64,000 nt of DNA from contig CAMBSD010000017.1 of NCBI GenBank assembly GCA_945870425.1, forward strand, positions 8,884-72,883, read 5' to 3'. Under the pieces are notes generated by a model. The model was not told where the DNA came from, ran no database searches, and saw only the letters and a list, made by a program, of their open reading frames with translations. Shown here in pieces: positions 1,154 through 34,900 of this stretch. This stretch comes from Chitinophaga pinensis (GTDB lineage: Bacteria > Bacteroidota > Bacteroidia > UKL13-3). A program made the translations under genes and the position numbers. How positions within the stretch are numbered: position 1 is the first letter of the stretch; each line of letters starts with the position of its first letter.

Positions 1154-1837
1154 TTAATGACTGCCCTTTAATTTTAATTTGTCTTTAAAAACCTTCTCAA
1201 GTTTCTCAACTTTAGGGGCAATCACAAATTGACAATACGATTGTTCGCTATTTTGGTTATAATAATTCTGATGATAATCTTCAGCAGAGTAATAATTATT
1301 TATTGCTGTTATCTCAGTAACAATTGGATTACTAAATGCGCCACTTGCATTTAACTCAGACTTATACTTTTCTGCTAATTGCATTTGAATATCGTTATAA
1401 TAAAATATGGCCGAACGATATTGTGTTCCAACATCATTACCCTGACGATTTAATGTAGTTGGATCATGGGTTTGCCAAAAAATAGATAACAAAGTTTCAT
1501 AAGAAACCATTTTAGGATCAAAGGTAATTCTGCATACCTCAGCATGACCAGTAGTTCCAGTGCATACATCTTTATAGGTAGGGCTCACCATATGTCCACC
1601 AGCATAACCACTTTCAACCTTAACCACACCATCTAAGAGCTGAAACATGGCTTCTACGCACCAAAAACAGCCAGCACCGAAAAGAGCTGTATCTAATTCA
1701 TTGTTATTTACTTCGTTTGTCATATTATTCGTTGTTTGGGTTATTTTTTTTTGACTATTTCTTTGACCACAGGCCGTTACAAATGTCAACAATAATATGG
1801 ACAGATGTAAAAGGTAAATTGTTTTACTATTTCTCAT
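1154..1837 (-). CDS. msrA: Peptide methionine sulfoxide reductase MsrA, lipoprotein/secreted form
   Basis: 227-aa ORF with the GCFWC active-site motif (FGAGCFWCVEAMF). N-terminal signal peptide and lipobox (LLTFVTACGQ). Confidence 0.9.
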   Translation of the reverse strand: MRNSKTIYLLHLSILLLTFVTACGQRNSQKKITQTTNNMTNEVNNNELDTALFGAGCFWCVEAMFQLLDGVVKVESGYAGGHMVSPTYKDVCTGTTGHAEVCRITFDPKMVSYETLLSIFWQTHDPTTLNRQGNDVGTQYRSAIFYYNDIQMQLAEKYKSELNASGAFSNPIVTEITAINNYYSAEDYHQNYYNQNSEQSYCQFVIAPKVEKLEKVFKDKLKLKGSH

Positions 1838-2090
1838 ATTTATATAAACGCAAAAAAAGAGGTATTGGTTTTTAAATCAGCAGCAAAAAATAAACTCTAC
1901 AATAACGACTTTAAAAAGATTAACATTTTGCCAAAAACATAAATTAAGTTGCCGAAGAAACTTCCAAACACTATTTGAGTCAATTAAGGCAAAACAAATA
2001 TAAAGCGGCAAATTATAAATTAAAATAGTATTATGAAACAGATCAAGGAGAAATCTTTGGCCTTATTCATTTTAGCGTAAACTCAATATT

Positions 2091-3221
2091 TTAAAACTTT
2101 TTCCCATGAGTCAAAGAAATAATTTGCTTTAACAATGAAGGAGTATAATTTAATAATTTTAAGCTCCACAAAGTGGTTAATCTTTTACCAAATAAGCGTT
2201 GAAGATAAAAAGCAATTTTTATTCTATTTGAAAAATTTTGATTCCATTCGTTCGTATAATTTTTGATTAATTCGTCTTTAGAAATTTTATTTTCAAAAAA
2301 CAAATGAACATGATTGGCCAATATTTTGGAGGCACGCAAGGCAATGCTCATCCCATTTCCGCAGAGCGGTGCAATGGCACCAGCAGCATCACCTAGCATA
2401 ATAATACCATGATTAAAAGCTTGTTTTTTCTCAAAACTAATTTGACTAATTACAACTGGTTTTTCAAACAAAAAAGATGATTCAGTAAAGTATTTTTTCA
2501 AATGTGGATTTTCATAAAGAATATTTTGCTCCATAAGCTTAATATCATTTTGATTTAATCTCAAGTTTTTAGCAGTTGTTAAATAACAAAGGCAATACGT
2601 ATCGTTATCAACCTTTGAAACGCCACAATAGCCATCCTTAAAATTATGCAATTCAATAATATTAAAAGGTAAATCTGTTTTGATATGATATTTTACCCCT
2701 ATGTACTTTCCTTTTTCGGTTGCCTTTTTTTGCGCTATAAACGGTGGGTTTATTTTCCCAAAACTGCCACAAACCAATTTTGATTGAAAAGTGTTTGAAT
2801 TGGATGTTATTTGATAGATTTCATCATGTAGCTTTACATCCAGAACCTTGGTATTATCAAAAATAGTAACACCCACCTCTTTCGCCTTTTTGCACAATAA
2901 ATCATCTAGTGAAAATCGGCTAATACCAAATCCGCCCAAATCTAATGGTGATTTTATTACATAACCATTTGGCGCAGAAACATGAATGGTATCGATAATT
3001 GGCAAGGATAGTTTTTCCAAAGACAAACCTAAACTGTTTAAAAAATCCCAACTTTCTAATGAAATATACTCACCACAAACTTTATGAAATGGGTACTTAT
3101 TTTTTTCAAACAAAATAACTTGGTGCCCTTTTTGTGCCAATTGAATCGACAAACTTAGACCTGCCAATCCACCACCAATAATAGCACAATCATATAGAAA
3201 AGATTGATTATCCATAAACAA
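2091..3221 (-). CDS. FAD-dependent oxidoreductase / flavoprotein monooxygenase-like (GGR/FixC-like fold)
   Basis: N-terminal Rossmann motif AIIGGGLAGLS. GDAAG motif (LGDAAGAIAP). 376 aa. Overlaps the upstream methyltransferase gene by 14 nt (operon). Confidence 0.8.
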   Translation of the reverse strand: MFMDNQSFLYDCAIIGGGLAGLSLSIQLAQKGHQVILFEKNKYPFHKVCGEYISLESWDFLNSLGLSLEKLSLPIIDTIHVSAPNGYVIKSPLDLGGFGISRFSLDDLLCKKAKEVGVTIFDNTKVLDVKLHDEIYQITSNSNTFQSKLVCGSFGKINPPFIAQKKATEKGKYIGVKYHIKTDLPFNIIELHNFKDGYCGVSKVDNDTYCLCYLTTAKNLRLNQNDIKLMEQNILYENPHLKKYFTESSFLFEKPVVISQISFEKKQAFNHGIIMLGDAAGAIAPLCGNGMSIALRASKILANHVHLFFENKISKDELIKNYTNEWNQNFSNRIKIAFYLQRLFGKRLTTLWSLKLLNYTPSLLKQIISLTHGKKF

Positions 3222-3915
3222 CTACTTCGTGTCTAAATGCCCATTTGTTTTTAACCGTATATTCTTTTGCTCCAGCTTGCTGAATCATATCAAGCCATTC
3301 ATTGTTTTTAAAGCCTCTCAGGACAGAAAGAGGCGCATCGTTTTTTACCAAATATGATTTTGAAAAAAGCATTGTTAAAAATTTGATGGAGTAATAAGCA
3401 AATCTATTTCGCTCCAAATCGTTAATGATTAAAATGGCTTTGTGTTTGATGGTAAACTGCAAGAGTTCAATAATCTGATTGGTAGTAAGGTGATGACAAA
3501 ATAAACTTGCATGAATAATATTTACTTCGTTCACATGTAAATGGATATTTCGGTAATCATCACAAATAAAATTCAAAGATTCATTGGGTTCGTTATGATT
3601 GGAATAATCAACACATGTTTTTTTTAAATCTATCCCATATAACTTGATTTCTTTATTGTTTTTTTTCGACCAATTAAAGATTGTTTTTAAAGTATCTCCT
3701 CCACCACTTCCGATATCTACCAATGTGAGTGGTTGATTATTAAACTCGATTTTCTTTAGTGCGTTTAGTGAAATTTGATAGCCACCCAATAAAGAATTGA
3801 TGACATGTAATTCTTTTAAATTCTGGAATAAATCAGTCTCAGGAATTTGCTCCGCATCTAATAATTCTTTTTTGGTACTTCTATTTTTAAACATAAGCCA
3901 ATTGCATGGTTTCAA
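3208..3915 (-). CDS. Class I SAM-dependent methyltransferase
   Basis: Motif I VDIGSGGGD. 235 aa. Overlaps the type III PKS stop and the oxidoreductase start. Confidence 0.75.
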   Translation of the reverse strand: MKPCNWLMFKNRSTKKELLDAEQIPETDLFQNLKELHVINSLLGGYQISLNALKKIEFNNQPLTLVDIGSGGGDTLKTIFNWSKKNNKEIKLYGIDLKKTCVDYSNHNEPNESLNFICDDYRNIHLHVNEVNIIHASLFCHHLTTNQIIELLQFTIKHKAILIINDLERNRFAYYSIKFLTMLFSKSYLVKNDAPLSVLRGFKNNEWLDMIQQAGAKEYTVKNKWAFRHEVVVYG

Positions 3916-5023
3916 TTGTTAAACCTGGACCAAAAGCGGCAGTGAATATAGTATTTCCGCTCGTTTTCTTTTCATTATTCCCAATCAATTCTTTCAACAC
4001 AAATAATATGGTGGGTGAAGACATGTTACCATAATTCTTTAAAACATTATAAGCAGAGGCCAATTCATTATTTTCCAAATCAAACACTTTCACAAAATCA
4101 TCCAGAATTTTTTTACCCCCAGGATGAATGGCCCAAAAGTTTATCTTATCTTTTTGAATGTTTAAATCACTCAACATTTTTGAAATATTCCCATTGATCA
4201 AATTGGAAATATAAGCCGATAAACTCATCAAAAAACCATTTTCAGAAAGTTGCCAAGCCATATCGTTTTGACCTTCGTGAATGATTAACGAATTAAATGA
4301 AGTAATTGCCAAGTCATTATATTCAGGCAAATTTTGAGGTTTGGAACTCACAATGGCTGCTGCGCATCCATCGCTGAAAAGCGAATTAGAAAGCAAATAA
4401 TCATCTGTAAAACTGTTTTGAATATGAATGGTACATAACTCTGTACAAACAATTAAAACCTTAGCGTTTGGGAGGCTATTGCAAATAGAATTGGCTTGAT
4501 TCAGTGCAATTATAGCAGCATTGCAACCCATAAAATTAATACTACTTCGTTGGGTTTTCGGATTTAAATTTAGTGCTTGAATCAACTCAATATCCAAGCC
4601 GGGAGCAAAAAGTCCGGTGCAAGTAACAGTAATGATATGTGTGATGCTACTTTTAATGGATTCAAAATTTGCTATCTTTCGAATAGCAGAAAGAGAAAGT
4701 TGCAAGGCATTTGTTTTATAAATCTCCATGCGCTTGGTTAATGAAACAGGCGGAGATAAATCCCAATTCTTTTCAAAAAAAGTAAAATCAGATGGCTGTT
4801 TGCCAAAATCAGCTAAAACAGAATAACGTGTTTGAATGCCTGATTTAGCAGCTACCATGTTCATTTTGCGTTTTATGGTAACATCCTCTGCAGTATTTTG
4901 AAAAAAAGCAGCCAATTCGTTTTGATGATATTGGTAAGCAGGAACTGCAATTTCAATGGCTGTTAAATAACTCAAAATAAATGCTTGGTTAAGAATAAAA
5001 TAATAAAACAAATGTTCATGCAA
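3887..5023 (-). CDS. Type III polyketide synthase (chalcone/stilbene synthase family; alkylresorcinol-synthase-like)
   Basis: Active-site Cys context FMGCNAAIIAL. C-terminal signature FWAIHPGGKKILD and GPGLTIETMQL (compare CHS WIAHPGGPAILD / GPGLTVE). 378 aa. Confidence 0.85.
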   Translation of the reverse strand: MHEHLFYYFILNQAFILSYLTAIEIAVPAYQYHQNELAAFFQNTAEDVTIKRKMNMVAAKSGIQTRYSVLADFGKQPSDFTFFEKNWDLSPPVSLTKRMEIYKTNALQLSLSAIRKIANFESIKSSITHIITVTCTGLFAPGLDIELIQALNLNPKTQRSSINFMGCNAAIIALNQANSICNSLPNAKVLIVCTELCTIHIQNSFTDDYLLSNSLFSDGCAAAIVSSKPQNLPEYNDLAITSFNSLIIHEGQNDMAWQLSENGFLMSLSAYISNLINGNISKMLSDLNIQKDKINFWAIHPGGKKILDDFVKVFDLENNELASAYNVLKNYGNMSSPTILFVLKELIGNNEKKTSGNTIFTAAFGPGLTIETMQLAYV

Positions 5024-5880
5024 AAGGCAGCTATTAAATTCATACGCATGGTATTTTTAAAATTAGCCGCTTTTTCATTTTTAATGGTTCTTACAAACCA
5101 CCATGCAAAGTACCCAACAATTGGTAAGAATAAAAGTTGTATCAAAAAAAAATTATTTGTATTACCTATTTGTTCAAAATATAAATAATAAAACACATTA
5201 CAGATTCCAAACATGAGTGCAGTAAAAACAAAGGTTCCTCTGTATCCTAATTGATAGCTTAATGTTTTTACACCATCCCCTAAATCTGCTTCATGCTGAT
5301 AAATTTGTGTTAATGGATAAGCACCTGCTATTTGAAAACTACAAGCTAAAAGCAATGAAATATTAGCACTTGAAAACGCGAACGAATCATTTGTAATTCC
5401 TATAACGCTCATGATATAGGTAAAGCCTCCTTGAAAAATAACCACTGTTAAAAATCCAATGATGGGATATTTTTTTAATCTAACTTGTTTGGAACTATAA
5501 GCCCTTGAAGCCAAAATATAAACAAGTATGCACAATGAAAAAAGTCTATTTACTAAGGAAAAAGCCAATATTATAGCCAATACATCTAGAACTAAAGTAA
5601 GGTAAAACAAATGAATAGTGGGTGCAGGAGGCTTTTCTATTCCACCAATACTGCCTTCATCTCTGTCAATATAACTATTATAGCCATTGCTTGCAGGGTA
5701 AACCAATAGATGAATAATGATAAAACTAAATAGCGAAGTGTAAATATTAACTGTAGACTGACTCAATGCCAAAATAAATAAAGGCATTAACAGCAGTGAA
5801 AATGGAATACGAAGTAACTGAAGCGTATTTCTAAAAACAGTATTTTTCATTTTGAAATGTTTGTATACAAACTTAAGCAC
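4972..5880 (-). CDS. UbiA-family aromatic prenyltransferase (integral membrane)
   Basis: 302 aa with about 8 hydrophobic helices. Asp-rich motif NSYIDRDEG near TM2. Overlaps the PKS start by about 50 nt. Confidence 0.6.
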   Translation of the reverse strand: MLKFVYKHFKMKNTVFRNTLQLLRIPFSLLLMPLFILALSQSTVNIYTSLFSFIIIHLLVYPASNGYNSYIDRDEGSIGGIEKPPAPTIHLFYLTLVLDVLAIILAFSLVNRLFSLCILVYILASRAYSSKQVRLKKYPIIGFLTVVIFQGGFTYIMSVIGITNDSFAFSSANISLLLACSFQIAGAYPLTQIYQHEADLGDGVKTLSYQLGYRGTFVFTALMFGICNVFYYLYFEQIGNTNNFFLIQLLFLPIVGYFAWWFVRTIKNEKAANFKNTMRMNLIAAFCMNICFIILFLTKHLF

Positions 5881-6212
5881 TTATATCACAATATGGCATT
5901 CATTCTTTGCTATCGCTTAATAACAATAATCCGCACTCGCTAGCGTCCCGCTGGTGAGTGTATTGATATGCCTCTGGCTGATTTTACAATATTACAAAGT
6001 TAAAAACTTTGCTTATCTATCCTCGCAATTGACACTGCGCTTAACACTTGTGAGAGCTTAGTCAATAAACAATTTTTCATAACAAATAAACTTAAATTTA
6101 GTATGAAGTTCTCAACCAAAACAACTCAGTTTTGGCCATCCATCACATTTTCAAACCCAATCGCTGTAACTTTTTTATATTGCTTATCGTATTAGTCTGA
6201 AATCTGCTCATT

Positions 6213-9200
6213 ATGATAAAAAAAATACTCCTCCTTTCTGTTCTATCCTTATTATTGCTAAGTATTGCCACAGCGCAAGAAAATGGCACTCCTAAAGCCG
6301 AAAAGATTCTGCATCAAACCATCATACATGGCGATACACTGCGAGATAATTATTTTTGGCTAAGGGATAAAAACAGCCCAGAGGTTATCAACTACCTATA
6401 TGCCAACAATGCTTACGCAGATAACAAAATGAAGGCGAGCAGCACCCTTCAAAAGGTATTGTTTGACGAATACAGAAGTCGGGTGAAAGAAACCTTTGAC
6501 AGCAAACCACAGAAAAATGAAGGCTATTACTACTATACCCGAAATGTAGCAGATAAAGATTATCCTGCCTTATACCGCAAAAAAGACAGTTTAAGTGCCA
6601 AAGAACAGGTGGTGCTTGACTTGAACGAACTATCAAAAGAATATTTCTATTTCTCCTTACAGTTTTTAAACTATAGCCCCGACCAATCCATCATAGCCTA
6701 TGGTGTTGACACCAAAGGAAGTTTGGTATCCACCATGTATTTTAAAATATTGGATATTGATTCTACCCTGAAGAATGAAAAAATTGATAGCGTATTAAGT
6801 GTAAGTTGGGCTAACGACAATAAAACCATTTATTATACAAAAGCCGAAGCCAAAACCAAACGTAGCTATAGGCTTTACAAACACACGCTTGGCAGCAACC
6901 CATTGGAAGATGAGTTGCTATATGAAGAGCCTGATAAAACATACGAAATAGGACTTAAACGCTCTTCATCAAAAAAATTCATTATCATGGAAGCAAGCAA
7001 AAGCCAAAGCAGCGAAGCTTGGTATTGGAGCGCAGATGATGTGCGTGCAAAACCCCTTTTGTTTAAGAAAAGAGAAGCCGCTTTGCTATACGATATCAAT
7101 CACTATGAAGGAGATGAGTTTTATATACAAACCAATTACAATGCCCTTAACCAACAATTGATGAAAGCCCCAATTAATGCCAAGTCTTGCAAAGAATGGC
7201 AAGTGGTAATTCCACACCGAAGTGGGGTTTTGTTTTCTGGTTATAGTTTATTGAAGAACTACCTTATTTGGAGCGAGCAACAAAATGTAGAACAAAGAAT
7301 TTTGATTAAACAAAGAAAAACCAATCAAATTGACACTCTAAAATCTAAAATAACATTAGGTAGCATGTCTTTCAGTATTGAAGATTATGATTACGAAAAA
7401 ACCAATGAAATAAGGTACAGCGCAGAAACCATGGTTACACCATCTGAAGAGTATAACTATGATTTAAACACAAAAAAGCAAACTTTTTATAATATGGATA
7501 GTATCAATGGGAAGTATAACCCAAGCTTGTATGCTAGCGAAAGGGTTTGGGCCAAAGCCAAAGATGGTGTGATGATACCCATTACCTTGGCTTATAAAAA
7601 AGGAATGCTTAAAAATGGCAACAATCCATTACTTCTTAGTGGCTATGGTAGCTATGGAGTTAGCTCTATGCCCGATTTCAACCAACTCAATATTAGCTTA
7701 CTTGACAGGGGTTTTATAGTGGCCACTGCGCACATCAGAGGTGGTAGAGAAATGGGTCAGGAATGGTATGACGATGGACGCATGTTGTATAAGAAAAATA
7801 CCTTCACCGATTTTATTACTTGTGCTGAACATTTGATAGCAGAAAAATATACTAGCACAGCTAAACTAGCAGTAGAAGGTGGTTCTGCTGGAGGTTTGTT
7901 GATGGGGGCTGTTACCAATATGCGAACTGATTTATTCAAATGTGTGATAGCCAGTGTGCCCTTTGTGGATGTAATCAATACCATGTTAGATGAGAGTATT
8001 CCTTTGACTACAGGTGAGTTTGAAGAATGGGGAAATCCGAAAAATAAGAAATACTATGACTACATGAAATCCTATTCACCTTATGATAACGTGGAACCTA
8101 AGACATATCCTCACATGCTTATAACTGCAGGCTACAACGATGCCCAAGTGGGCTATTGGGAGCCTGCCAAATGGGTAGCTAAGTTAAGGGAATTGAAAAC
8201 CGATACTAATATGCTTTTATTCAAAACCGTGATGGAAGGCGGACATGGCGGCTCTTCTGGTAGGTACAATAAACTTATAGAACAAGCTTACCGCACAGCT
8301 TTTGTTATGCAATGTTTGGGAGTGAAAGAAAACTACATCAGCCTAAAAGGTAAAGTGGTAGATGAATATAATGAACCTGTTATTTATGCCAATGTGTATT
8401 TAGAGGAAAGTAAAATAGGTACAACAAGCAATCAAAATGGAGAGTTTGAATTAAAAGTAAAAGAGTTTAACAATGCTACTTTGGTGGTTCAATCATTGAC
8501 CTATGAAAAACAAAAAATCAAACTTGGACTAAGAACAAGAATACAAAACTTGGTCATTAAAATGAAATCTGAAAACATTCAGATGAAAACGGTAACGGTT
8601 GTTGCCAATGCAGTTGACCCAGCTTTGGGCATCATCAAGCAAGCCATCAAAAAGCGTAAAGAAAACTACGATAGAGTGAAATCATTCTCATCGGATGTGT
8701 ATATGAAATCGAATGTAAAACTATTGGAAGTACCCAAAAACATGCCTTTCTTTTTGAAGCTAGTTGCCAACGGTGAAGTGATTGATTCAAACGATTTAGG
8801 GCTTGTATATTTATCAGAATCTTCTGCAAAATATTACTTTGAAAAACCTGACAATAACAAAGAGGAAATGATGGCAAGCAAAGTAGCTGGACAGAAGCAA
8901 GGCTTTAGTTGGAACAGGGTAAAAGATGTATTCTTCAATTTGTATGAACCTACCATAGACCTAAGCTATTACAGCGAAAGGCCATTTGTATCCCCTATTG
9001 CACCTTTGGCATCTCTTAGTTATAAATATAAATTCAAAGGCAGTTTTTATATAGATAACAAGGAGGTAAACAAAATAGAAATCATTCCCCTTCGCAAGGG
9101 TGACCCATTGTTTCAAGGTTATATTTACATTACATCAAACGATTACCAAATATATGGTGCGGATTTACGAGCCACAAAGGATGCACAAATACAATTTGTA

Positions 9201-10814
9201 GATACAGTGAATTTACAACAGGAAATGGTTAACATCAATAATACTTGGGTACCGATGCAAATGAAAATTTATAGTCATATTAAAGTATTTGGATTTGGTG
9301 CCAATGATGTGAACATGGCAAGCATGAGCAACTACAATCTCAATCGTAGTTTTCCTCCAGGTTTCTTTAGCAACGAAACTTTCAAAATAGATAGAAATGC
9401 CAACCGCAAAGACAGTATGTATTGGAAAACTACTCGAACCATTATGCTTACTTCCGAAGAGGAAAAACACTATGGTAAATCAGATAGTATTTACCAAGCA
9501 CAACATACACCTCACTATTTAGATTCTGTGTCGAGGGTCAGAAATAAAATCACATTTGATAAAATATTTTTGAGCGGATATACCTTTAGCAAGCGTAATG
9601 ATACCCTTAGCAAATCCTTATCATTTGACCCATTGTTATTTGCTTTTGGATTCAATACAGTTGAAGGTTTATACACGAATTTCAATATTAGTTACAGATT
9701 ATTTTCAGGCAGCAGTGAAGAGTACTATTTAGGAAGAGATAGAACCTATCTCACTACCACCTTAAGGTATGGATTTGCAAACCAAAACTTAGCTCCTGGT
9801 ATACAATATTTCAAAACCATAGACAATAGGACAAGTACAAGCATCTCATTCAAAGTTGGACGATTTATTGAGCAATACAACCAAGCAGAACCCATTAGTA
9901 AAATTGTGAATGCTGGCTACACTTTGTTTGATAGAATCAATTACATGAAAGTATTGCAGAAAGATGTGATATCTATTACAGGTAGAAAAGAATTGAGCAA
10001 TGGCTTATATGCCAAAGCAAATGTGCAATTTTATCAAAGAGAAGCCATGGTAAACCATACCGATTATTCTTTTTCTGACAAAGACAAAAGAGCTTATAGT
10101 TCTAATAACCCTAGTAATACATATAGTGACGCACCTGCGTTCAACTCTCACTCTACCTTAGAATATGGCATCTCTTTGCGGTATGTTATCAAACAGAAAT
10201 ATGAAATGTTTCCAAACTTTAAGAATGTTCTTGAATCAAAATACCCTGATTTATATTTCAGTTTCAAAAATGCCATCATGACGGCCAGCAACAACAATAT
10301 GAGCAAATTCAATTATATGTATTTGGAGGCAGGTACTGGAAAAGACATTAACCTAAAATTATTGGGAGAATTGAAATTTGATGTGAATGCAGGAATATTT
10401 CTGTCAACAGACAACATGCTATTTGCCGATTACAAGCATTTCAATGGCAACCAAACCATGTTTTTGCATAACCCTAAAAACTTGAATGCTACGGGTGAGG
10501 AAACAAGGGTTAGATTAACAGGATTTCATGCCTTGAACTATTATCAATTTAGCACCAACGATAAGTTTATTGAGGCACATGCCATGCAAAATTTTAAAGG
10601 TTTCTTAATAGGTAAAGTACCATTATTACGTATGATTCACGCATACGAAGTAGCGGGAGTAAATTTCCTATATACACCCAACCTTACCTACAACGAGTTG
10701 TATTTTGGCTTAAGCAATATCTTAACCTTATTAAGGGTAGATGCAGGAAAAGTAACATCCATAGGAGGCAGTAATGATTGGTTCTTACGTTTTGGAATAG
10801 ATATGGATTTCTAA
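6213..10814 (+). CDS. Fusion protein: oligopeptidase B (S9 prolyl-oligopeptidase family) joined to a carboxypeptidase-regulatory-like domain and a DUF5686-like beta-barrel-type domain
   Basis: Signal peptide MIKKILLLSVLSLLLLSIATAQ. Nucleophile GGSAGGLLMGA with Asp (GYNDAQ) and His (GGHGG) completes the S9 triad by about aa 700. Continues in frame into GKVVDEYNEPVIYANVYLEESKIGTTSNQNGEFELKV (CarbopepD_reg) and about 780 aa more. No internal stop. Confidence 0.75.
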   Translation: MIKKILLLSVLSLLLLSIATAQENGTPKAEKILHQTIIHGDTLRDNYFWLRDKNSPEVINYLYANNAYADNKMKASSTLQKVLFDEYRSRVKETFDSKPQKNEGYYYYTRNVADKDYPALYRKKDSLSAKEQVVLDLNELSKEYFYFSLQFLNYSPDQSIIAYGVDTKGSLVSTMYFKILDIDSTLKNEKIDSVLSVSWANDNKTIYYTKAEAKTKRSYRLYKHTLGSNPLEDELLYEEPDKTYEIGLKRSSSKKFIIMEASKSQSSEAWYWSADDVRAKPLLFKKREAALLYDINHYEGDEFYIQTNYNALNQQLMKAPINAKSCKEWQVVIPHRSGVLFSGYSLLKNYLIWSEQQNVEQRILIKQRKTNQIDTLKSKITLGSMSFSIEDYDYEKTNEIRYSAETMVTPSEEYNYDLNTKKQTFYNMDSINGKYNPSLYASERVWAKAKDGVMIPITLAYKKGMLKNGNNPLLLSGYGSYGVSSMPDFNQLNISLLDRGFIVATAHIRGGREMGQEWYDDGRMLYKKNTFTDFITCAEHLIAEKYTSTAKLAVEGGSAGGLLMGAVTNMRTDLFKCVIASVPFVDVINTMLDESIPLTTGEFEEWGNPKNKKYYDYMKSYSPYDNVEPKTYPHMLITAGYNDAQVGYWEPAKWVAKLRELKTDTNMLLFKTVMEGGHGGSSGRYNKLIEQAYRTAFVMQCLGVKENYISLKGKVVDEYNEPVIYANVYLEESKIGTTSNQNGEFELKVKEFNNATLVVQSLTYEKQKIKLGLRTRIQNLVIKMKSENIQMKTVTVVANAVDPALGIIKQAIKKRKENYDRVKSFSSDVYMKSNVKLLEVPKNMPFFLKLVANGEVIDSNDLGLVYLSESSAKYYFEKPDNNKEEMMASKVAGQKQGFSWNRVKDVFFNLYEPTIDLSYYSERPFVSPIAPLASLSYKYKFKGSFYIDNKEVNKIEIIPLRKGDPLFQGYIYITSNDYQIYGADLRATKDAQIQFVDTVNLQQEMVNINNTWVPMQMKIYSHIKVFGFGANDVNMASMSNYNLNRSFPPGFFSNETFKIDRNANRKDSMYWKTTRTIMLTSEEEKHYGKSDSIYQAQHTPHYLDSVSRVRNKITFDKIFLSGYTFSKRNDTLSKSLSFDPLLFAFGFNTVEGLYTNFNISYRLFSGSSEEYYLGRDRTYLTTTLRYGFANQNLAPGIQYFKTIDNRTSTSISFKVGRFIEQYNQAEPISKIVNAGYTLFDRINYMKVLQKDVISITGRKELSNGLYAKANVQFYQREAMVNHTDYSFSDKDKRAYSSNNPSNTYSDAPAFNSHSTLEYGISLRYVIKQKYEMFPNFKNVLESKYPDLYFSFKNAIMTASNNNMSKFNYMYLEAGTGKDINLKLLGELKFDVNAGIFLSTDNMLFADYKHFNGNQTMFLHNPKNLNATGEETRVRLTGFHALNYYQFSTNDKFIEAHAMQNFKGFLIGKVPLLRMIHAYEVAGVNFLYTPNLTYNELYFGLSNILTLLRVDAGKVTSIGGSNDWFLRFGIDMDF

Positions 10815-23282: not shown

Positions 23283-26200
23283 TTAAGGTTTTATTGTTAA
23301 AACTCCTAATGAGCTATTACTATCCAATATTGGATAATCATTAAAATCAACTGATGCATCTCCATTCAAATCGGTTACAAAATATCCTAAGTCTCCAATG
23401 TTACTTGAAATATCTAATGCTGGATAATCATTAAAATCAACTGAACCATCTTGGTTTATATCTCCAGTATAAATCATAAAAATACCTGATCCGTTATCGA
23501 CCAAATTATTACCAAATGCTTTTGATGCACTAGTAGTAAAATTATATGAAACATTATTTGAACTAAAAGTAATTGGATTTGCACTCCACGTTTCAATTGA
23601 ATTGCGGTGTTTAACAACTACATAATAAGAGTTACCAATAATTGAACTAGGGAACTGAAAATTACCATTTCCTTCAATATTGATTACTGATTTACATGTA
23701 TAAATAGAGTTAAAAGGTGTTATTGACGAATGCAATTCTACAACTATGGTATCAGCAATATTTGATAATCCAGATACAGTTGCTGCTTTGGGAGAAGCAA
23801 TCATATTACCATTTCCAATGTTTAATCCTTGTAAAAATGCCGTTAAATTTAATGTTGTTCCTGAAGTTAAAAATGAGTTATAGGTATCTGGATTATACAT
23901 TGATAAAATTTGTCCACCTTCTACTTGCTCGCCACCAACGCCATAATGTGCTTGGTCTACCATTAAAAACATACCTGCTCCTAAGATTGATTGCATGTCT
24001 ATGATACCAGAAGCTTCTTCATCTTGTGTTAAGTAGTTTGCCGCGCCATTGATAAATCTGGTTGAATCATGGGTAGCGATTAATTTTAATTCATCCGTGG
24101 CAGTAGTGTACTGCCAAATTTTTCCTAAATGAACATTGTTTCCTACATCCTCTTGCAATAAGACATGACCATAATTATCAATAGTCATATTGTCCATCAT
24201 CTTTGGACCTTCAGTTCCATCTAAGACTGCGGTGATAGTTCCACCTGATTCTGGAGTATTGATATCCGAAAGGCGCAATCTCCATAAACGACTTGGTGCA
24301 GTGAATGAATTAGTAGTTACAAAATAGAAATCGTTCGGATTACTTGGATCCCAATGACCATCTTCTGGACGTAAGAAATTAGTTACTCCCAAAGCATTAC
24401 TTTTTGTATTTAAAGCTGCTCCTGAAGAATCTCTTACAATACCTAAATCAACCATAGTAAAGGCCGTATTGGCACCAGGAATTGAAGCACTAACTTCTGT
24501 TGTTAAACCTGTTACTGCAACTCCATATAAACGACCATTGCTTAAACCAGCTTTCTCAATTTCTGTTCCTGTATTGGTTTTGGTTCCAATGTAGAAATAA
24601 ACCTGACCTGGAGTTGCATCATCTGTACCCACAACGATTGTTTTGTTTTGAGCAACTGGTGAGGCAATTGAATTTTCCCATGAGAATTTACCTAAGTAAG
24701 GCAATTCATAAGTAGTTCCTGCATTTGCTCCTGTTACAATATGACCAAAAGCACGTCCTTCAGCGCCTGCTTCTTCACCATTCATAAAGATTCTTTCTTG
24801 TGTTCCTAATCCGCTTGTTGCATTATAGAATGCACTTACTGGTGGTAAATCAGAAGAGCAGAAACGGTTGAATGCTTTTTTGCTTGCAGTATCTGCAGGG
24901 TTATATAAAGTATAACCTGTTCCATTCCATAAATTAACTTTTTGAATCAAATCTGAACCACTAACTACGCTTAAATCAGATTTGTTGATTACCCATTTAG
25001 AAACAAATGCACCCTTAGCACCATGTGCTCTGTTTACTCCTAAGGTATTACCAAACTCATGACTTACTAAAAACGTAAAAGTACCGTTACCATTGTCGTA
25101 AGCACCTGTTCCATCTGGTGTTCCAGCCATCATGTAATTTCCTACTTTATCGCCTGCTGTTAATATCGCAGTAGTTGTTACTCCAGAAGCAACTGGCAAT
25201 AAATAAGGTGATTGTGAACTATTAGCACCAGCATTTGGAACAATAACAGCATCAAGTCTATTGCTTAATGATTGAATTCTTATATCACCTTTAATAGAAG
25301 TATCTCTTAAATTATATGGAGTACTTGTGTAGAAGTTACCCATGTATTCCGCGAAAGCATCTTGCTCTTTACCAGTTGTAGAAAAAGTTGCAATACCTGT
25401 AGATTTAATTGCGGTATCTAAATTAACTCTATTTGTAGCATTTGCAGGGAAAGGATAATTATCACCACCAGTAAATAAGAAGTCTAAAGTTACAAATTTG
25501 ATGATTCTACTAGTATCGCCAACCAAAGCACCATTTTTAACAATAGTATCTAATCTGTTTCCTAAAGAATCAACTAAAACCATTGAACGAATTCTGTTTC
25601 CAGCACTTAGGTTCACATTGTAACTGAACATAACACCACCAACTTGTGGGAATTGACCTGGAGTTGCACCAGCAGTAGTAGCAGAAATTCCATGTTCTAA
25701 AATTCTTTTTAATCCTGCAGCATTTGTTCTAGCAACAACTAATCCATTGTTGAATCTTAAAGAGTTTTCAATGTCTAATTGAGAGATATCACCTTTAGCT
25801 TTGCCAGCAGAAGGATTTGCAAGTGTATTTTCTAAGATTGTAGTGTTTCCAACTGCATTGATATTTCCAATTGCAGAGCGGATACCACCGCCATTTTTGA
25901 TAGAAACTTTTACTCCAGAATCTGCCAATTTAGCATACCATAAGTTAGCATCAGCAGTTAAGTTACCGAAATTTGTTTCTTCAGTTCTAACAAAATTTCT
26001 TCTTCCTTCTAAGAATACATTTGTTTTTCCAAATTTGTTACCGTCTTTATTATTTATAACTGTAGCAATTTGTGAAGTTAAAGTTCTAACATTTGCACCT
26101 TTACTTCCATTAGTAAAACCAGCAGTATAAGTACCATATAAAGTAGTAACCATAGCTGTATCAGCTGCATAAGCACCGTTGATAGTAGAATCTAAAAAGT

Positions 26201-28850
26201 TTGGTAATAATCTTCCTAAAGAATCGAAATCGCAAACAAAACGACCCACATATTTCCATTCAGCAGTTGTATTTAAAATAGCTAATGGCTCGTTGTCGTT
26301 GTTTACAGTTAAAATTGGATACGTATCAGCCACTGGAATGCCTGCTCTTAATCTGTCATTGCCATCAGCACATAATGAATGTGAACCACCAGCAATAATA
26401 ATATCAACACCTTTTAATAAGGGAGCCAAAGCTTTTTCGTTAGCCAATTGTTGTAAATGACTCATAACAATAATTTTGTTGATTCCCATTGTTCTTAAAG
26501 AATCAATAACTGGTTGTAATACTGCAGCTAAAGCAGGCATATCATTTACGTTAGCACCAATTACTGTAGTAGCACCTGGAGATGAAATAGAAGCTAATAC
26601 TTGCGTAGTAGCACCAACAATACCTACTCTTTCGCCATTCATTGCAATAATAGCTGAAGGTGCAATACCTTTCTTTTGGCTGTTTGCAGTAATGTTTACA
26701 GGAGTTTTAAAACTATCAACAAGCAAACGTTGGTTAGTAGTTAAGTAACTTAAATTAATATCGTTTGCAAAGTTTAAGTTAGCACTTAAATATGGAAATT
26801 GAGCACCAATCCAACGTTTATCAGCACCATTACTTCTAATATCAACACCTATGATACTATTTACCTCAGGAGTTCCTAAATCAAACTCGTGGTTACCAAA
26901 AGCCGAACCCTGGAAACCCATAATATTCATCATAGCAATATCTGTTCTACCAATGGCTGGTCTGATTGATTGTGTTCCTGCATAATAACTGCTAGCCGTA
27001 TTACGTAAAGGAGTTTGCATACTAGCATCTTCACCAGCGCTTAAAAACGGACTAGGAATATAACAATCACCAGAAGCTAACTTTACAGTATTAGGGTAAG
27101 TACCTTCTAAAGTATCTAATACAGCAGCAAAGTTTGGTGCATCTATGGGAGCATCAATTCCGCTTTCCATATCCGAAGCGTGTAATACTTGCATTTGGAA
27201 TGCACTACGAGAGTTTACTTGAAATACAGCAACTGTTCCACTTACTTCATTAGATAATAAAATCAAATCTTTTCCATTTGGACTTTCATTACGTGGTATG
27301 AATACAATTCCCTCTGGACCTAAGTCACCAACTGTAGCCAAATTAGCTTGACTTGGACTAACAGCAAAATTTCTTGTATTTATGTATTGCACAAAATATG
27401 GGCTATTTGGATTTGTGATATTGTAAATCATAATACCACCAATTCTTTCTAATGCTACAAAAGCATAAGTACTGTCTAATATTTTACCGATAGTTACTGA
27501 CTCTGGTTCAGGACCTTTGTTATCACTCCTATTATCTAATGCATTAGAAGAATGATTTGCATTAAAGTTTGAAGGATAAGCAGCTAAAGTTTTTCTTTCA
27601 AACTCATCTTTACTATCCCAAACTAATGAACCAGTTGAACCATTCCAAATAGAAAACGAACGACCACCAAATGCAAAAATGGTATCGAATAAACCGTCAG
27701 CATTATTATCACCAAATAATTTAGTAACAGTTAATCTTCCAATTCCTGTATTTGCTTTTAAGGCTGTTACCCTAGCTGCACCTCCAAAATTAGTTGGATC
27801 TAAATTATATGAACCAGAACCAACTGAAGTTTCTTCATTGTTAGCTGCACCCCAATCTGCTCTTGCATCACCTTCATTAGCGGTAACAAAATAAGTTTGG
27901 TTTCCAACTTTATAAGAAGAAATACCATCAGGTAAATACATTCCTAAAACTGGGAAAGTATCAATTTTGGCTAAAGCCGCATTTGAAGCACCATCTCTAT
28001 CAGAACCATCAAAAGCATTTTCCAATAAAGCATGATTTTTATAACCTAAAGGCAATAAAGATGTAATAGTAGCTGTATTTATATCTACAACAGCAACACA
28101 ATTGTTTTCTTGACAAGTTACCCATGCAGTATTGTTATCATCAGAGATACTTATGTATTCTGGTTCCAAATCTTCTGCAACAGTTGAGTTCCTTAAAAAT
28201 GATCCACCTGATTGAATTTTTCCGAAAATACGAATTTTTGAGTCAATTACAGTAGGAGCATTAAATGCAGTAAAACCAGCAGTTTGCACATTAGATTGAG
28301 TTAATCCAGCAAAACCACCTGAAACATCAATAATTGAAACCGAACCTTCTGGATCGATGGTGTAACCATTGTTTGGCTCACCTTCGTTAGCTACTAAAAC
28401 TTTGTTTCCATTTGGTGTGAAAACCACATTGTCGGCATTAGCACCCACTTTTACTTTACTAATAAAGTTTCCATTGATGTCTAAAAATACGATGCTACTT
28501 GCGTTTGTTTTACCATTCGAATCTAAAATGGCAGCAGCAATAATTCCTTTTTTGTTACAAGCTACCGAAGTAATGTCACTTCCATAAGGAGCCATTGAAA
28601 TAGAACTAATTTGAGCTGGGCTAGCAGGATTAGCCATGTTTACAATCCTCAAAGAATTGTCTGGACCGTTTGTAACAAACATTCTTTTTGAACTTGGGTC
28701 GTAAGCCGAAATTTCAGCTACTCCTCCATCTTGGTTGTAAGTTCCTATGGAGTACCTTCCAAGGAGTTGCGCATTGATTTGCGCTTTAATTTGTGAACCT
28801 ACAGATAATAAAAGCAGGGCACATAAAAATTTGTAAATTGTTTTTTTCAT
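23283..28850 (-). CDS. Giant secreted multi-domain phosphoesterase: beta-propeller N-domain, 5'-nucleotidase/metallophosphoesterase, phytase-like domain, novel dockerin-like C-terminal module
   Basis: 1855 aa. Signal peptide MKKTIYKFLCALLLLSVGSQIKAQ. Metallophosphatase motifs LHASDMES and GNHEFDLG. Phytase-like region. C-terminal ...[15 protein letters not shown]...[14 protein letters not shown]... with no canonical T9SS CTD. Confidence 0.8.
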   Translation of the reverse strand: MKKTIYKFLCALLLLSVGSQIKAQINAQLLGRYSIGTYNQDGGVAEISAYDPSSKRMFVTNGPDNSLRIVNMANPASPAQISSISMAPYGSDITSVACNKKGIIAAAILDSNGKTNASSIVFLDINGNFISKVKVGANADNVVFTPNGNKVLVANEGEPNNGYTIDPEGSVSIIDVSGGFAGLTQSNVQTAGFTAFNAPTVIDSKIRIFGKIQSGGSFLRNSTVAEDLEPEYISISDDNNTAWVTCQENNCVAVVDINTATITSLLPLGYKNHALLENAFDGSDRDGASNAALAKIDTFPVLGMYLPDGISSYKVGNQTYFVTANEGDARADWGAANNEETSVGSGSYNLDPTNFGGAARVTALKANTGIGRLTVTKLFGDNNADGLFDTIFAFGGRSFSIWNGSTGSLVWDSKDEFERKTLAAYPSNFNANHSSNALDNRSDNKGPEPESVTIGKILDSTYAFVALERIGGIMIYNITNPNSPYFVQYINTRNFAVSPSQANLATVGDLGPEGIVFIPRNESPNGKDLILLSNEVSGTVAVFQVNSRSAFQMQVLHASDMESGIDAPIDAPNFAAVLDTLEGTYPNTVKLASGDCYIPSPFLSAGEDASMQTPLRNTASSYYAGTQSIRPAIGRTDIAMMNIMGFQGSAFGNHEFDLGTPEVNSIIGVDIRSNGADKRWIGAQFPYLSANLNFANDINLSYLTTNQRLLVDSFKTPVNITANSQKKGIAPSAIIAMNGERVGIVGATTQVLASISSPGATTVIGANVNDMPALAAVLQPVIDSLRTMGINKIIVMSHLQQLANEKALAPLLKGVDIIIAGGSHSLCADGNDRLRAGIPVADTYPILTVNNDNEPLAILNTTAEWKYVGRFVCDFDSLGRLLPNFLDSTINGAYAADTAMVTTLYGTYTAGFTNGSKGANVRTLTSQIATVINNKDGNKFGKTNVFLEGRRNFVRTEETNFGNLTADANLWYAKLADSGVKVSIKNGGGIRSAIGNINAVGNTTILENTLANPSAGKAKGDISQLDIENSLRFNNGLVVARTNAAGLKRILEHGISATTAGATPGQFPQVGGVMFSYNVNLSAGNRIRSMVLVDSLGNRLDTIVKNGALVGDTSRIIKFVTLDFLFTGGDNYPFPANATNRVNLDTAIKSTGIATFSTTGKEQDAFAEYMGNFYTSTPYNLRDTSIKGDIRIQSLSNRLDAVIVPNAGANSSQSPYLLPVASGVTTTAILTAGDKVGNYMMAGTPDGTGAYDNGNGTFTFLVSHEFGNTLGVNRAHGAKGAFVSKWVINKSDLSVVSGSDLIQKVNLWNGTGYTLYNPADTASKKAFNRFCSSDLPPVSAFYNATSGLGTQERIFMNGEEAGAEGRAFGHIVTGANAGTTYELPYLGKFSWENSIASPVAQNKTIVVGTDDATPGQVYFYIGTKTNTGTEIEKAGLSNGRLYGVAVTGLTTEVSASIPGANTAFTMVDLGIVRDSSGAALNTKSNALGVTNFLRPEDGHWDPSNPNDFYFVTTNSFTAPSRLWRLRLSDINTPESGGTITAVLDGTEGPKMMDNMTIDNYGHVLLQEDVGNNVHLGKIWQYTTATDELKLIATHDSTRFINGAANYLTQDEEASGIIDMQSILGAGMFLMVDQAHYGVGGEQVEGGQILSMYNPDTYNSFLTSGTTLNLTAFLQGLNIGNGNMIASPKAATVSGLSNIADTIVVELHSSITPFNSIYTCKSVINIEGNGNFQFPSSIIGNSYYVVVKHRNSIETWSANPITFSSNNVSYNFTTSASKAFGNNLVDNGSGIFMIYTGDINQDGSVDFNDYPALDISSNIGDLGYFVTDLNGDASVDFNDYPILDSNSSLGVLTIKP

Positions 28851-31969: not shown

Positions 31970-34900
31970 TTATGGTGTCATTGTCAATGTTCCAAGATTA
32001 CTGTTGATATCTAACAATGGATAATCACTAAAATCAACAGAGGCATCGCCATTTAAGTCGGTTACATAATATCCTAAATCTCCATTGTTACTGCTAATAT
32101 CTAAATCAGGATAATCATTAAAGTCAACCGAACCATCTTGGTTGATATCTCCAGTATACATAATGAATACACCATTTCCATCATCAGCCATATTGCTTCC
32201 AAAAGCTTTACTTGCTGCATTTGAGAAATCATAATTATTTGTTTGACCTAATACAATTGGATTTGCTGACCAAGTGGTTATTGAGTTTCTATGTTTGATT
32301 ACTACAAAATAAGCATTACCCATCAAGGTTCCTGAGAAACTGCTTGAAACCATACCTGAAGTAGAAACAGATGATTTGTTAGTAGCAATTAAAGTATGGC
32401 TGCTGGTGGTATCATGCAATTCAATTGTTATGGTATCTGCTATAGTGCTTGGGCTAATTCCATCTGCACTAAATGGGGCAGCTATCATTGCGCCATTGCC
32501 CAGGTATAAGCCTTGTAAATATAATTTCAAGTTTAATTGTGCCGAAGCTGCAATTACATTAAGAGTTAAAGTAGCCGCACTATCACAACCTGCTGCATTG
32601 GTTAAATGTGCAGTTTGTGTTCCTGCTGCATTAAAGGTTAAACCGTTCCAATTGTAAGGCAACTGGTTTGAGTATATAGTTACGTTATTACTTGATGTGG
32701 TTGGTGTGCAAACTGAAACTACAGTTATATTAACAATGGCGTTGTTAGTACCACCACAATTATTTGCAGTAACGGTATAGTTTGTTGCAACCGAAGCAAC
32801 AGTTGGCGTGCCACTAATAACACCTGTAGTAGTGTTTAAACTTAAACCTGCTGGTAAGCTAGGGGTTACGCTATAACTACTTACCGCTCCACCGCTCATA
32901 TCAATTTTATAAACTTCAGAGTTATCGTCATCAGCCACATACACATTACCTGCTGCATCTAATGCAACACCCCTAGGTGCACTAAAACCAGAACCGATAC
33001 TGCTAATATTTCCGTTTGGAGCAACCACTTTGATAACACCATTTGAATTTGCACCATCAGCCACATAAACATTATCATTAGCATCTACAGCAATAGAACT
33101 CATATCATCAAAGCCTGTGGCTAAAACAGATATAGCGCCATTGGTAGTCATCTTTTTTAATACTCCTCCGAAACCAGTACCAGAATAATCTCCTACATAA
33201 ATATTACCTGTTGCATCTACAGCTATGGCTTCTGGATAAACAAATCCTGAACCTATAACTGTTATAATTCCACTGGTATTTATTTTTTTAACTTTATTAT
33301 TAAAGTTATCTGTTACATAAATATTACCTGCAGCATCAACTGCAACAGCCCTTGGGTTATTAAAACCAGTATAGGTATTTAACAAATTACCATTTGGCGA
33401 AATTTTTAATACTTTATTGTAGTATTGATTTGTAACATATACATTACCTGCTTTATCGGTAGCAAGGCCTCTTGCTTTTTCTATACCTGTGCTATAAAAA
33501 GTGGTTTCATTACCATTTTTATCTATTTTTTTAATTACGTCGTTGTCATAGTCAGAAACAAACACATTGCCTGCAGTGTCTACGGCAACACCATAAGGAT
33601 CGTAACCTGATGTAATTGTAGAAACATTGCTTGGGCTTAGTGGCGTTATGCTGCTATTTTGTGTGAATACATTAGGTGTATTATAGCTAAAAGCATTAGG
33701 TGCTTGTGTAACGGTTAAATTTAATGTTACCACACTATCGCAACCTGCTGCATTCGTTAATAATATTGTATCTGTGTTATTACTTGCAGTATATACTTTA
33801 TTGCCTTTGGCTACCCAAGTGTAGCTGCCACAAGCAGTATCCGTGAAAATTGACACCGTTGGTGTGCAAACAACACAACTAGATAATTGCATAGGGCTGG
33901 TTTTATTGCCAGCAGTACCAATACCTAATGCTGCTCCCGCGAAATTAGCCCCCCAAACCCATAAACTGCCATCGGTTTTAATGGCTAGGCTATGATCATA
34001 ACCTGCACTAATGCTTGCCCAATTGGTGGCAGTGCCTATTTGCACGGGGGTGTGTCTACCGGTAGTAGTTCCATCGCCCAATTGCCCTTGATAATTTACA
34101 CCCCAAGCCCATAAACTGCCATCAGTTTTTTTTGCCGTGGTATAATACCCACCTGCACTAGTGCTAGCCCAATTTGTTGCAGTGGTTATTTGCACAGGGC
34201 TGTGTCTATCGGTAGTAGTTCCATCGCCCAATTGTCCATCAGTATTTAATCCCCAAGCCCATAATGTGCCATCGTTTTTAACGGCAACATTGTGCATTCC
34301 ACCTGCATCAACGCTTTTCCAATTGGTGGCAGTGCCAATTTGCACAGGGCTGTTTCTTTGGGTAGTAGTTCCATCGCCCAATTGCCCAAATCCATTATAG
34401 CCCCAAGCCCATAATGTGCCATCGGTTTTTGTGGCTACGGTACTACTATATCCTACACTAATGCTTTTCCAATCGGTCGCAGTGCCTATTTGCACAGGGC
34501 TGTTTCTTTGGGTAGTGGTTCCATCACCCAATTGTCCGTTTAAATTTTTACCCCAAGCCCATAATGTGCCATCGGTTTTAAGGGCCATGGTATGTTCAGA
34601 AATACCACAAATAATTGTTTTCCAATTGGTGGCAGTGCCTATTTGCACTGGGCTGTTTCTTAGGGTAGTGGTTCCATCACCCAATTGTCCGTTAAAATTT
34701 TTACCCCAAGCCCATAATGTGCCATCATTTTTTATGGCCATGCTATAATCATTCCCACCCACAACGGTTTTCCAATTCCAATTGGTGGCTGTGCCTATTT
34801 TCACAGGGCTGTTTCTGGTGGTTTGAGTGCCATCTCCCAATTGTCCCCAATTATTATAACCCCAAGCCCATAAACTGCTATCAGTTTTTATGACAATGCT

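Follow-up and report, generated by a model that had tools for sequence, protein, structure and literature searches.

A conserved prenyltransferase, type III polyketide synthase, methyltransferase and flavoprotein operon of Bacteroidota, a candidate source of prenylated phenolic membrane lipids

A 64,000-nucleotide stretch of DNA from Chitinophaga pinensis (assembly GCA_945870425.1, contig CAMBSD010000017.1, positions 8,884 to 72,883; hereafter the window, within which positions are counted from 1) carries on its minus strand four overlapping genes that encode a UbiA-superfamily membrane prenyltransferase (UbiA), a type III polyketide synthase (PKS), a class I S-adenosylmethionine (SAM)-dependent methyltransferase (MT) and a FAD-dependent oxidoreductase (the flavoprotein). 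This cassette is a widely conserved orphan biosynthetic operon, whose enzyme classes are known from agqABCD of Actinoplanes missouriensis and whose gene order and hydroxylase family are different. The reading we favour, albeit with some reserve, is that the four genes work as a single operon for a prenylated, methylated and hydroxylated phenolic or quinone lipid of the membrane.

Relatives of the cassette were sought with two PKS peptide patterns in one genome per GTDB species, and at least 363 of these genomes, from environmental Bacteroidota, were matched. The genome loci studied here are the best 80 of these 363 relatives, with enough sequence in 74 to judge all four genes. All 80 belong to the Bacteroidota, namely Dyadobacter, Cytophaga, Crocinitomicaceae/Fluviicola, Saprospiraceae/Haliscomenobacter and many metagenome-assembled genomes (MAGs), several of them labelled lake or pond; the nearest is a Bacteroidia MAG with 94% identity. 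Searches of these loci by tblastn with the four window proteins recovered the order UbiA-PKS-MT-flavoprotein, with tight junctions, in 73 of the 74 informative loci, the sole exception being L022, where TPM-domain genes lie where UbiA would be. The cassette was found across Cytophagales, Flavobacteriales and Chitinophagales with flanks that differ from lineage to lineage, and the four genes therefore travel as a unit, an arrangement far beyond chance. The sequence-only reading from which this work started had named the lack of such co-conservation in related genomes as grounds for abandoning its proposal, and the opposite was found.

UbiA is bound particularly closely to the PKS. The two are one 652-aa open reading frame (ORF) in most of the Dyadobacter loci examined (L029, L031, L032, L036, L045 and L067, at about 6128-8090), and separate with a 4-nt overlap in Dyadobacter sp. 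CY312 (L027), so that there is strong evidence for the two proteins working together. UbiA had at first been regarded as an add-on to a gene set like srsABC of Streptomyces; since it is fused to the PKS in this way and is conserved at least as well, it has rather to be counted as core. Other fusions involve UbiA as well, with a DoxX_2 domain in proteins of 418 aa (P0273 and P0283) and with a YdbH-like lipid-transport domain in a protein of 920 aa (P0479). Of 23 loci outside Dyadobacter, 9 have a YceI-like gene immediately beside the cassette and in the same orientation, and YceI, whose family binds polyisoprenoids and lipids, also stands beside two more distant versions of the cassette. Some loci have DoxX genes or DoxX-UbiA fusions and Cytophaga has an SRPBCC protein, whilst no YceI, DoxX or SRPBCC gene was found within the 64-kb window.

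The four minus-strand ORFs, their overlaps and their order were all as first described (Table 1). The gene ends given initially turned out to be those of the longest possible ORFs: the reading frames are real, and start codons were refined here from the junction sequences and from homologue lengths (362 aa in most PKS homologues), which moved the start of UbiA from 5880 to 5850. UbiA and PKS share 4 nt (TTGA), PKS and MT share 8 nt (ATGTTTAA) and MT and flavoprotein share 8 nt (ATGGATAA). The -7 box consensus of Bacteroidota, TAnnTTTG, occurs twice on the minus strand upstream of UbiA (6002-5995 and 5875-5868), where approximately 0.3 matches would be expected. The second of these falls within the extension that a GTG start at 5880 would add, hence the ATG at 5850 is favoured. 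A sigma-70 promoter scan gave only background-level signal, no Rfam family was matched within or around the operon, and no terminator-like site was detected in 1700-6300, hence none within the cassette.

Table 1. The cassette and its upstream region in the window, with the identity of homologues in related loci to each window protein.
Feature	Position	Strand	Length	Start codon and overlap	Identity
UbiA-superfamily membrane prenyltransferase	4972..5850	(-)	292 aa	ATG 5850 preferred; longest ORF from GTG 5880	60-69%
Type III PKS	3887..4975	(-)	362 aa	TTG; overlaps UbiA stop	54-62%
Class I SAM-dependent MT	3208..3894	(-)	228 aa	ATG 3894; overlaps PKS	57-67%
FAD-dependent oxidoreductase, probably ring hydroxylase	2091..3215	(-)	374 aa	ATG 3215; overlaps MT	50-64%
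Divergent intergenic region upstream of UbiA, likely promoter region	5851..6212				

Pfam and NCBIfam scans bore out the family proposed for each of the four genes, and the motifs quoted for them are present in the sequence (FMGCNAA and FWAIHPGG in the PKS, LGDAAGA in the flavoprotein). For the PKS the question that had been raised was whether it would group with FabH-like ketosynthases. It matches the chalcone synthase (CHS) domains PF00195 (Chal_sti_synt_N, 94.5 bits) and PF02797 (Chal_sti_synt_C, 83.4 bits; cutoff 27), whilst the FabH domains score lower (PF08541, 37.7 bits; PF08545, 25.8 bits), and NCBIfam gives 154 bits for DpgA versus 53 bits for FabH. All of the PDB matches listed are type III PKSs, the best being Mycobacterium tuberculosis PKS18, a long-chain alkylpyrone synthase (1.9e-44), with HsPKS1 and plant and algal type III PKSs also among the best solved relatives. 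The catalytic triad of Cys151 (GCNAA), His284 (WAIHPGG) and Asn317 (GNMSS) is invariant in 20 homologues. FabH was therefore rejected as the identity of this protein, the CHS domains scoring two to three times above the FabH domains, and the type III assignment made initially stands. The more general objection, that the four genes are chance neighbours or that the PKS is a fatty-acid ketosynthase with no dedicated pathway around it, could draw on the FabH-domain matches, which are weak and are seen on every type III PKS; set against the domain scores and PDB matches, the fusion proteins and a gene order kept by all but one of the 74 informative loci, which come from diverse genomes, we give it practically no credence.

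The PKS sequence also speaks to the mode of ring closure. Trp241, which is invariant, aligns with Gly256 of CHS and Leu266 of PKS18. When a 71-residue fragment around Trp241 was compared with the PDB, the G284W mutant of Azotobacter ArsC (3VS9) was among the matches listed and wild-type ArsC (3VS8) was not in the best 60 of 69 matches; as the 3VS9 and 3VS8 chains differ at that residue alone, ArsC position 284 aligns with Trp241. Whether cyclisation yields a resorcinol or a pyrone is determined in Azotobacter by Trp281 of ArsB and Gly284 of ArsC (PMC6274091), and with an invariant tryptophan at the ArsB position an aldol, resorcinol-type product is predicted. Resorcinol cyclisation by the window PKS is thus likely, as far as its sequence can tell.

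The prenyltransferase matches PF01040 with 68 bits (cutoff 34), has eight or nine hydrophobic helices and carries the Asp-rich motifs N58-S-Y-I-D-R-D64 and D189-L-G-D192, most residues of which are invariant in 23 homologues. An AlphaFold2 (AF2) model of the protein (pLDDT, the predicted local distance difference test score, 87.3) gave 14 best Foldseek PDB matches that are all members of the UbiA superfamily, including DGGGPS, ApUbiA, UBIAD1 and AfUbiA, at 12-17% identity and TM scores of 0.56-0.73. By sequence, neither the single protein nor a profile matched any PDB entry, and a search of the plasmid collection with the protein also gave no match. The subfamily is small, at 723 representative clusters among 1.84 billion (E<=1e-3), and the window UbiA is, judged on its sequence, a remote member of the superfamily with no solved relative detectable in that way.

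The association with the PKS extends to distant homologues of this UbiA. Among those with 34-44% identity, a type III PKS is adjacent in 4 of 5 sampled contigs: UbiA-PKS-MT in L089 (43% identity), YceI-UbiA-PKS-MT-FAD in L091 (38%), a PKS divergent from UbiA together with an unknown gene and YceI in L090 (44%) and FAD-PKS-MT divergent from UbiA-CydA-CydB in L092 (34%), with a lone UbiA in L087 (37%). In a further 80 metagenome loci the PKS directly follows UbiA in 67, most of the others being too short to judge. The linkage to cytochrome bd subunits I and II seen in L092 (JGI metagenome 3300029990, 6001-9302), where the flavoprotein of the opposite operon is of the PF01494 type, occurs in 1 of 172 loci.

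The MT gave weak matches to Pfam class I MT domains and 120 bits to NCBIfam PRK06202, under its cutoff of 243. It is homologous to MTs encoded beside type III PKSs in Novosphingobium (3e-30), Psychrobacter (9e-29) and Deinococcus (3e-21). In the nearest relative, the MAG Bacteroidia EUL_060 (L002), the MT gene contains approximately 155 extra bases, including a 52-bp direct duplication (2660-2866), and some 2.35 kb are inserted between the cassette and msrA (4338-6692); these extra sequences may be assembly artefacts or small insertions.

The flavoprotein has a FAD Rossmann domain with GxGxxG and GDAAG motifs. Its best NCBIfam match is the geranylgeranyl reductase (GGR) subfamily TIGR02032 (94.3 bits, cutoff 158.8, mostly over residues 10-156), followed by weak full-length matches to QhpG and LodB, and PF01494 reaches 36.6 bits over residues 11-129 only. 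Its AF2 model (pLDDT 87.5) superposes about equally, at approximately 16% identity each, on flavin halogenases (PltA, ChlB4, FasV, Mpy16, CndH, Bmp2 and PltM), PqsL, 3-hydroxybenzoate 6-hydroxylase (3HB6H) and a GGR-like protein. The motif K45-V-C47-G-E-Y is invariant. Halogenase function was considered and rejected, as Ile74 occupies the position of the catalytic Lys76 in CndH and the WxWxIP motif is absent (G195-Y-C-G-V-S-K-V, without Trp). Seven cysteines (C10, C47, C149, C197, C208, C210 and C285) are invariant or nearly so, and may constitute a metal or redox site.

The position after MT varies in its occupants. The window-type flavoprotein is found there in all genome loci and in 6 metagenome loci, whilst 33 metagenome loci that keep UbiA-PKS-MT in this order have in its place a 530-aa aromatic-ring hydroxylase with PF01494 and Rng_hyd_C domains (242 bits). 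Two near-identical loci from soda-lake sediment lack a flavoprotein and instead encode, between UbiA and PKS, a U32-peptidase-like protein of 407 aa whose C-terminal part has a CxxxxCxxCxxC cluster (L160:4383-5606; L166:6590-7330). The U32 family includes UbiU, UbiV and TrhP, which hydroxylate independently of O2, and the soda-lake protein may be an O2-independent ring hydroxylase. One slot is occupied by unrelated enzymes, which suggests a common task for them, ring hydroxylation. Elsewhere, members of the window-type family follow type III PKS (and MT) genes on alphaproteobacterial plasmids with no UbiA nearby (Novosphingobium, E=1e-34), and a 40% homologue is encoded downstream of the genes for an isonitrile synthase and a TauD/TfdA dioxygenase on plasmid pHsw1 of Hymenobacter swuensis (L082:2132-7146), so that the family has a part in another aromatic pathway as well.

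An alternative role for the flavoprotein is that of a GGR/MenJ-type reductase saturating a prenyl double bond, which would yield a dihydroprenyl methoxy-resorcinol lacking the additional oxygen on the ring. The GGR subfamily is its best curated match, its invariant K-V-C47-G-E is similar to the catalytic-Cys motif of GGRs, some of its homologues are named 'menaquinone-9 beta-reductase' by JGI, and the Actinoplanes product, as described where it is cited, bears a dihydrogeranyl group (Awakawa 2011, cited in PMC10896814). The 94 bits are, however, well under the cutoff of 159 and cover mainly the FAD-binding N-terminus, and a bona fide aromatic-ring hydroxylase sits in the same slot in 33 loci. 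Moreover, since the family occurs in PKS-(MT)-FAD operons without a prenyltransferase and in the isonitrile cluster, its substrate is unlikely to be a prenyl chain. We consider prenyl reduction unlikely, and context favours ring hydroxylation over it.

Under the favoured reading of a phenolic or quinone membrane lipid, the PKS would condense a fatty-acyl starter with three malonyl units and close the ring by aldol condensation to give a 5-alkylresorcinol, which the flavoprotein would hydroxylate to a hydroxyquinol or quinone precursor and the MT would O-methylate on the ring. UbiA, which sits in the inner membrane and has a physical link to the PKS (a covalent one in Dyadobacter), would add an isoprenoid chain, either on the ring itself or on one of its oxygens. 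The expected product is a prenylated methoxy-alkyl-(hydro)quinone or resorcinol lipid residing in the membrane. We infer the order of the steps, the regiochemistry, the lengths of the starter and prenyl chains and the physiological role, be it that of a membrane-protective or a redox lipid.

The lipids of agqABCD are reportedly built by a similar logic, an alkylresorcinol being made and then hydroxylated by a monooxygenase, O-methylated and prenylated by a UbiA-like O-prenyltransferase. According to the articles that cite the original study, agqABCD is a four-gene operon that makes alkyl-O-dihydrogeranyl-methoxyhydroquinones and, like the window cassette, encodes a type III PKS, a ring hydroxylase, an MT and a UbiA-like membrane prenyltransferase together (Awakawa et al. 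2011, ChemBioChem 12:439; cited in PMC10896814, PMC7692728 and PMC4044012). Given this precedent, that such lipids should be prenylated is nothing new in kind. The gene order differs, being PKS, hydroxylase, MT and UbiA in agqABCD, insofar as it can be read from such descriptions, and UbiA, PKS, MT and FAD in the window; the agq-type order was judged from the consecutive agqA-D genes (PMC7692728) and from the table of the Micromonospora los cluster, which lists UbiA, MT, 'acyl-CoA dehydrogenase' and PKS (PMC7587189). The hydroxylase differs too, as the agq-type enzyme is annotated as acyl-CoA-dehydrogenase-like whereas the window protein is a GGR/halogenase-like FAD protein without an acyl-CoA-dehydrogenase domain. 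The two systems also belong to different phyla, with UbiA-PKS fusions and YceI partners seen on the Bacteroidota side only.

The PKS-MT-flavoprotein order had been said to mirror srsABC, and does match the three-gene operons srsABC of Streptomyces griseus and pkqABC of Mycobacterium smegmatis and Streptomyces sp. MNU77 (PMC9927152, PMC10896814), as well as an operon of Deinococcus radiodurans. srsABC and pkqABC make an alkylresorcinol-derived methoxy-quinone lipid (PMC9927152, PMC10896814) and, unlike the window cassette, include no prenyltransferase. Against the window flavoprotein, the PF01494 enzyme from the Deinococcus PKS-MT-FAD operon gave no BLASTP match at E<=1e-3, and the two are separate families. 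The hidABC hierridin cluster of picocyanobacteria and a planctomycetal MT-oxidoreductase-PKS operon likewise combine a type III PKS with an MT and a FAD oxidoreductase, the PKS of the latter having been shown to make C15/C17 alkylresorcinols (PMC8086630, PMC10896814), but they have other gene orders and no UbiA, although one Raphidiopsis cluster has a prenyltransferase (PMC8086630). An srs-like pathway with added prenylation, as originally proposed, is thus upheld in its enzyme families, gene order and conservation, with the corrections that UbiA is core and that the flavoprotein is of a distinct GGR/halogenase-like family, whose equivalence to SrsC is at most putative.

Several points weigh against this reconstruction. 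The flavoprotein lies under every curated family cutoff; it keeps GDAAG, yet the DG motif for NAD(P)H of classic hydroxylases is replaced by C149-G-S-F-G-K, and K-V-C47-G-E presumably corresponds to the catalytic-Cys motif of GGRs. It is probably a ring hydroxylase, an assignment drawn entirely from genomic context. M. tuberculosis PKS11, deposited as alpha-pyrone synthase-like, also has a tryptophan at the ArsB-281 position, so that resorcinol cyclisation is not certain, and the starter-chain length of the window PKS is one that we infer. The likeness to Agq is one of enzyme classes, and that to Srs one of enzyme classes and gene order, as taken from descriptions, and our literature search returned no paper on a Bacteroidota type III PKS/UbiA cassette and no chemistry for any Bacteroidota member.

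The same enzymology could serve another function, and possibly another chain origin, if the product were a respiratory quinone. In that case the head group would be an aromatic ring from the PKS rather than 4-hydroxybenzoate derived from chorismate, UbiA would add a (poly)prenyl tail, and hydroxylation and O-methylation would tune the redox potential of a ubiquinone- or plastoquinone-like 'polyketide prenylquinone' that operates alongside menaquinone in Bacteroidota. The enzyme set does mirror the core of ubiquinone synthesis (UbiA; UbiH/F/I or UbiU/V; UbiG/E) in combining a membrane UbiA with ring hydroxylation and methylation, although the ubiquinone ring comes from chorismate and that of the cassette from a polyketide synthase, and none of the window proteins reaches the cutoff of a Ubi family model. 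Further points in its favour are the U32-like protein between UbiA and PKS in the flavoprotein-less variant from anoxic sediment, the CydA and CydB genes directly after UbiA in L092, the DoxX-UbiA fusions and DoxX neighbours, the YceI neighbours, and the fact that polyketide quinones carry electrons in Mycobacterium and Streptomyces (PMC9927152). On the other hand, the CydAB link is confined to that one locus of the 172 and the U32 link to two near-identical loci, the window has no cyd, DoxX or YceI genes, the cassette contains no polyprenyl-diphosphate synthase, and PKS18, the closest solved PKS, takes long-chain acyl starters. Support for this reading is thin, and a second respiratory or redox quinone, with its hydroxylation step filled according to habitat by interchangeable O2-dependent flavoproteins or possibly by an O2-independent U32-like enzyme, seems to us doubtful.

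Genes neighbouring the cassette were also considered as members of it. msrA (1154-1837 in the window) was rejected, as only two close relatives have it downstream of the cassette (immediately so in L007, approximately 2.5 kb away in L002). The carotenoid genes downstream of the Dyadobacter cassette were rejected because they are convergent and were found only in the Dyadobacter-dominated locus set; those of L027 (9949-12640), read by eye, encode a lycopene-cyclase-like membrane protein, a CrtZ-like hydroxylase, IPP isomerase (idi) and phytoene synthase (crtB), and their position is probably genus-specific synteny. Divergent from the window cassette is a plus-strand gene (6213-10814) for a 1533-aa protein with an S9 prolyl-oligopeptidase (propeller and catalytic domain), CarbopepD_reg_2 and a full DUF5686 domain, which had no match beside the cassette in the flank comparisons with other genomes. 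The window, with a G+C content of 35%, encodes some proteins with type IX secretion sorting domains, and its large secreted or surface proteins include a 1855-aa choice-of-anchor I, 5'-nucleotidase and PhoX protein (23283-28850), a 1965-aa RCC1/NHL repeat protein (31970-37867) and an M36 fungalysin with a type IX secretion tail (56656-59241).

Phenolic lipids made by type III PKSs harden cyst coats and alter antibiotic tolerance, and in actinobacteria they carry electrons under hypoxia. To our knowledge, only menaquinones are in use in the Bacteroidota, a phylum commonly credited with a simple set of lipids and quinones. The cassette, as a strictly conserved version of such a pathway, offers a well-defined target for a new class of membrane lipid in this phylum, and its product class would be one that nobody has isolated from Bacteroidota. 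It also provides leads for enzymology in its natural UbiA-PKS fusions, its remote UbiA subfamily and the non-homologous enzymes that occupy one pathway slot. Were the product to prove a respiratory quinone, the interest of the system would be considerably higher.

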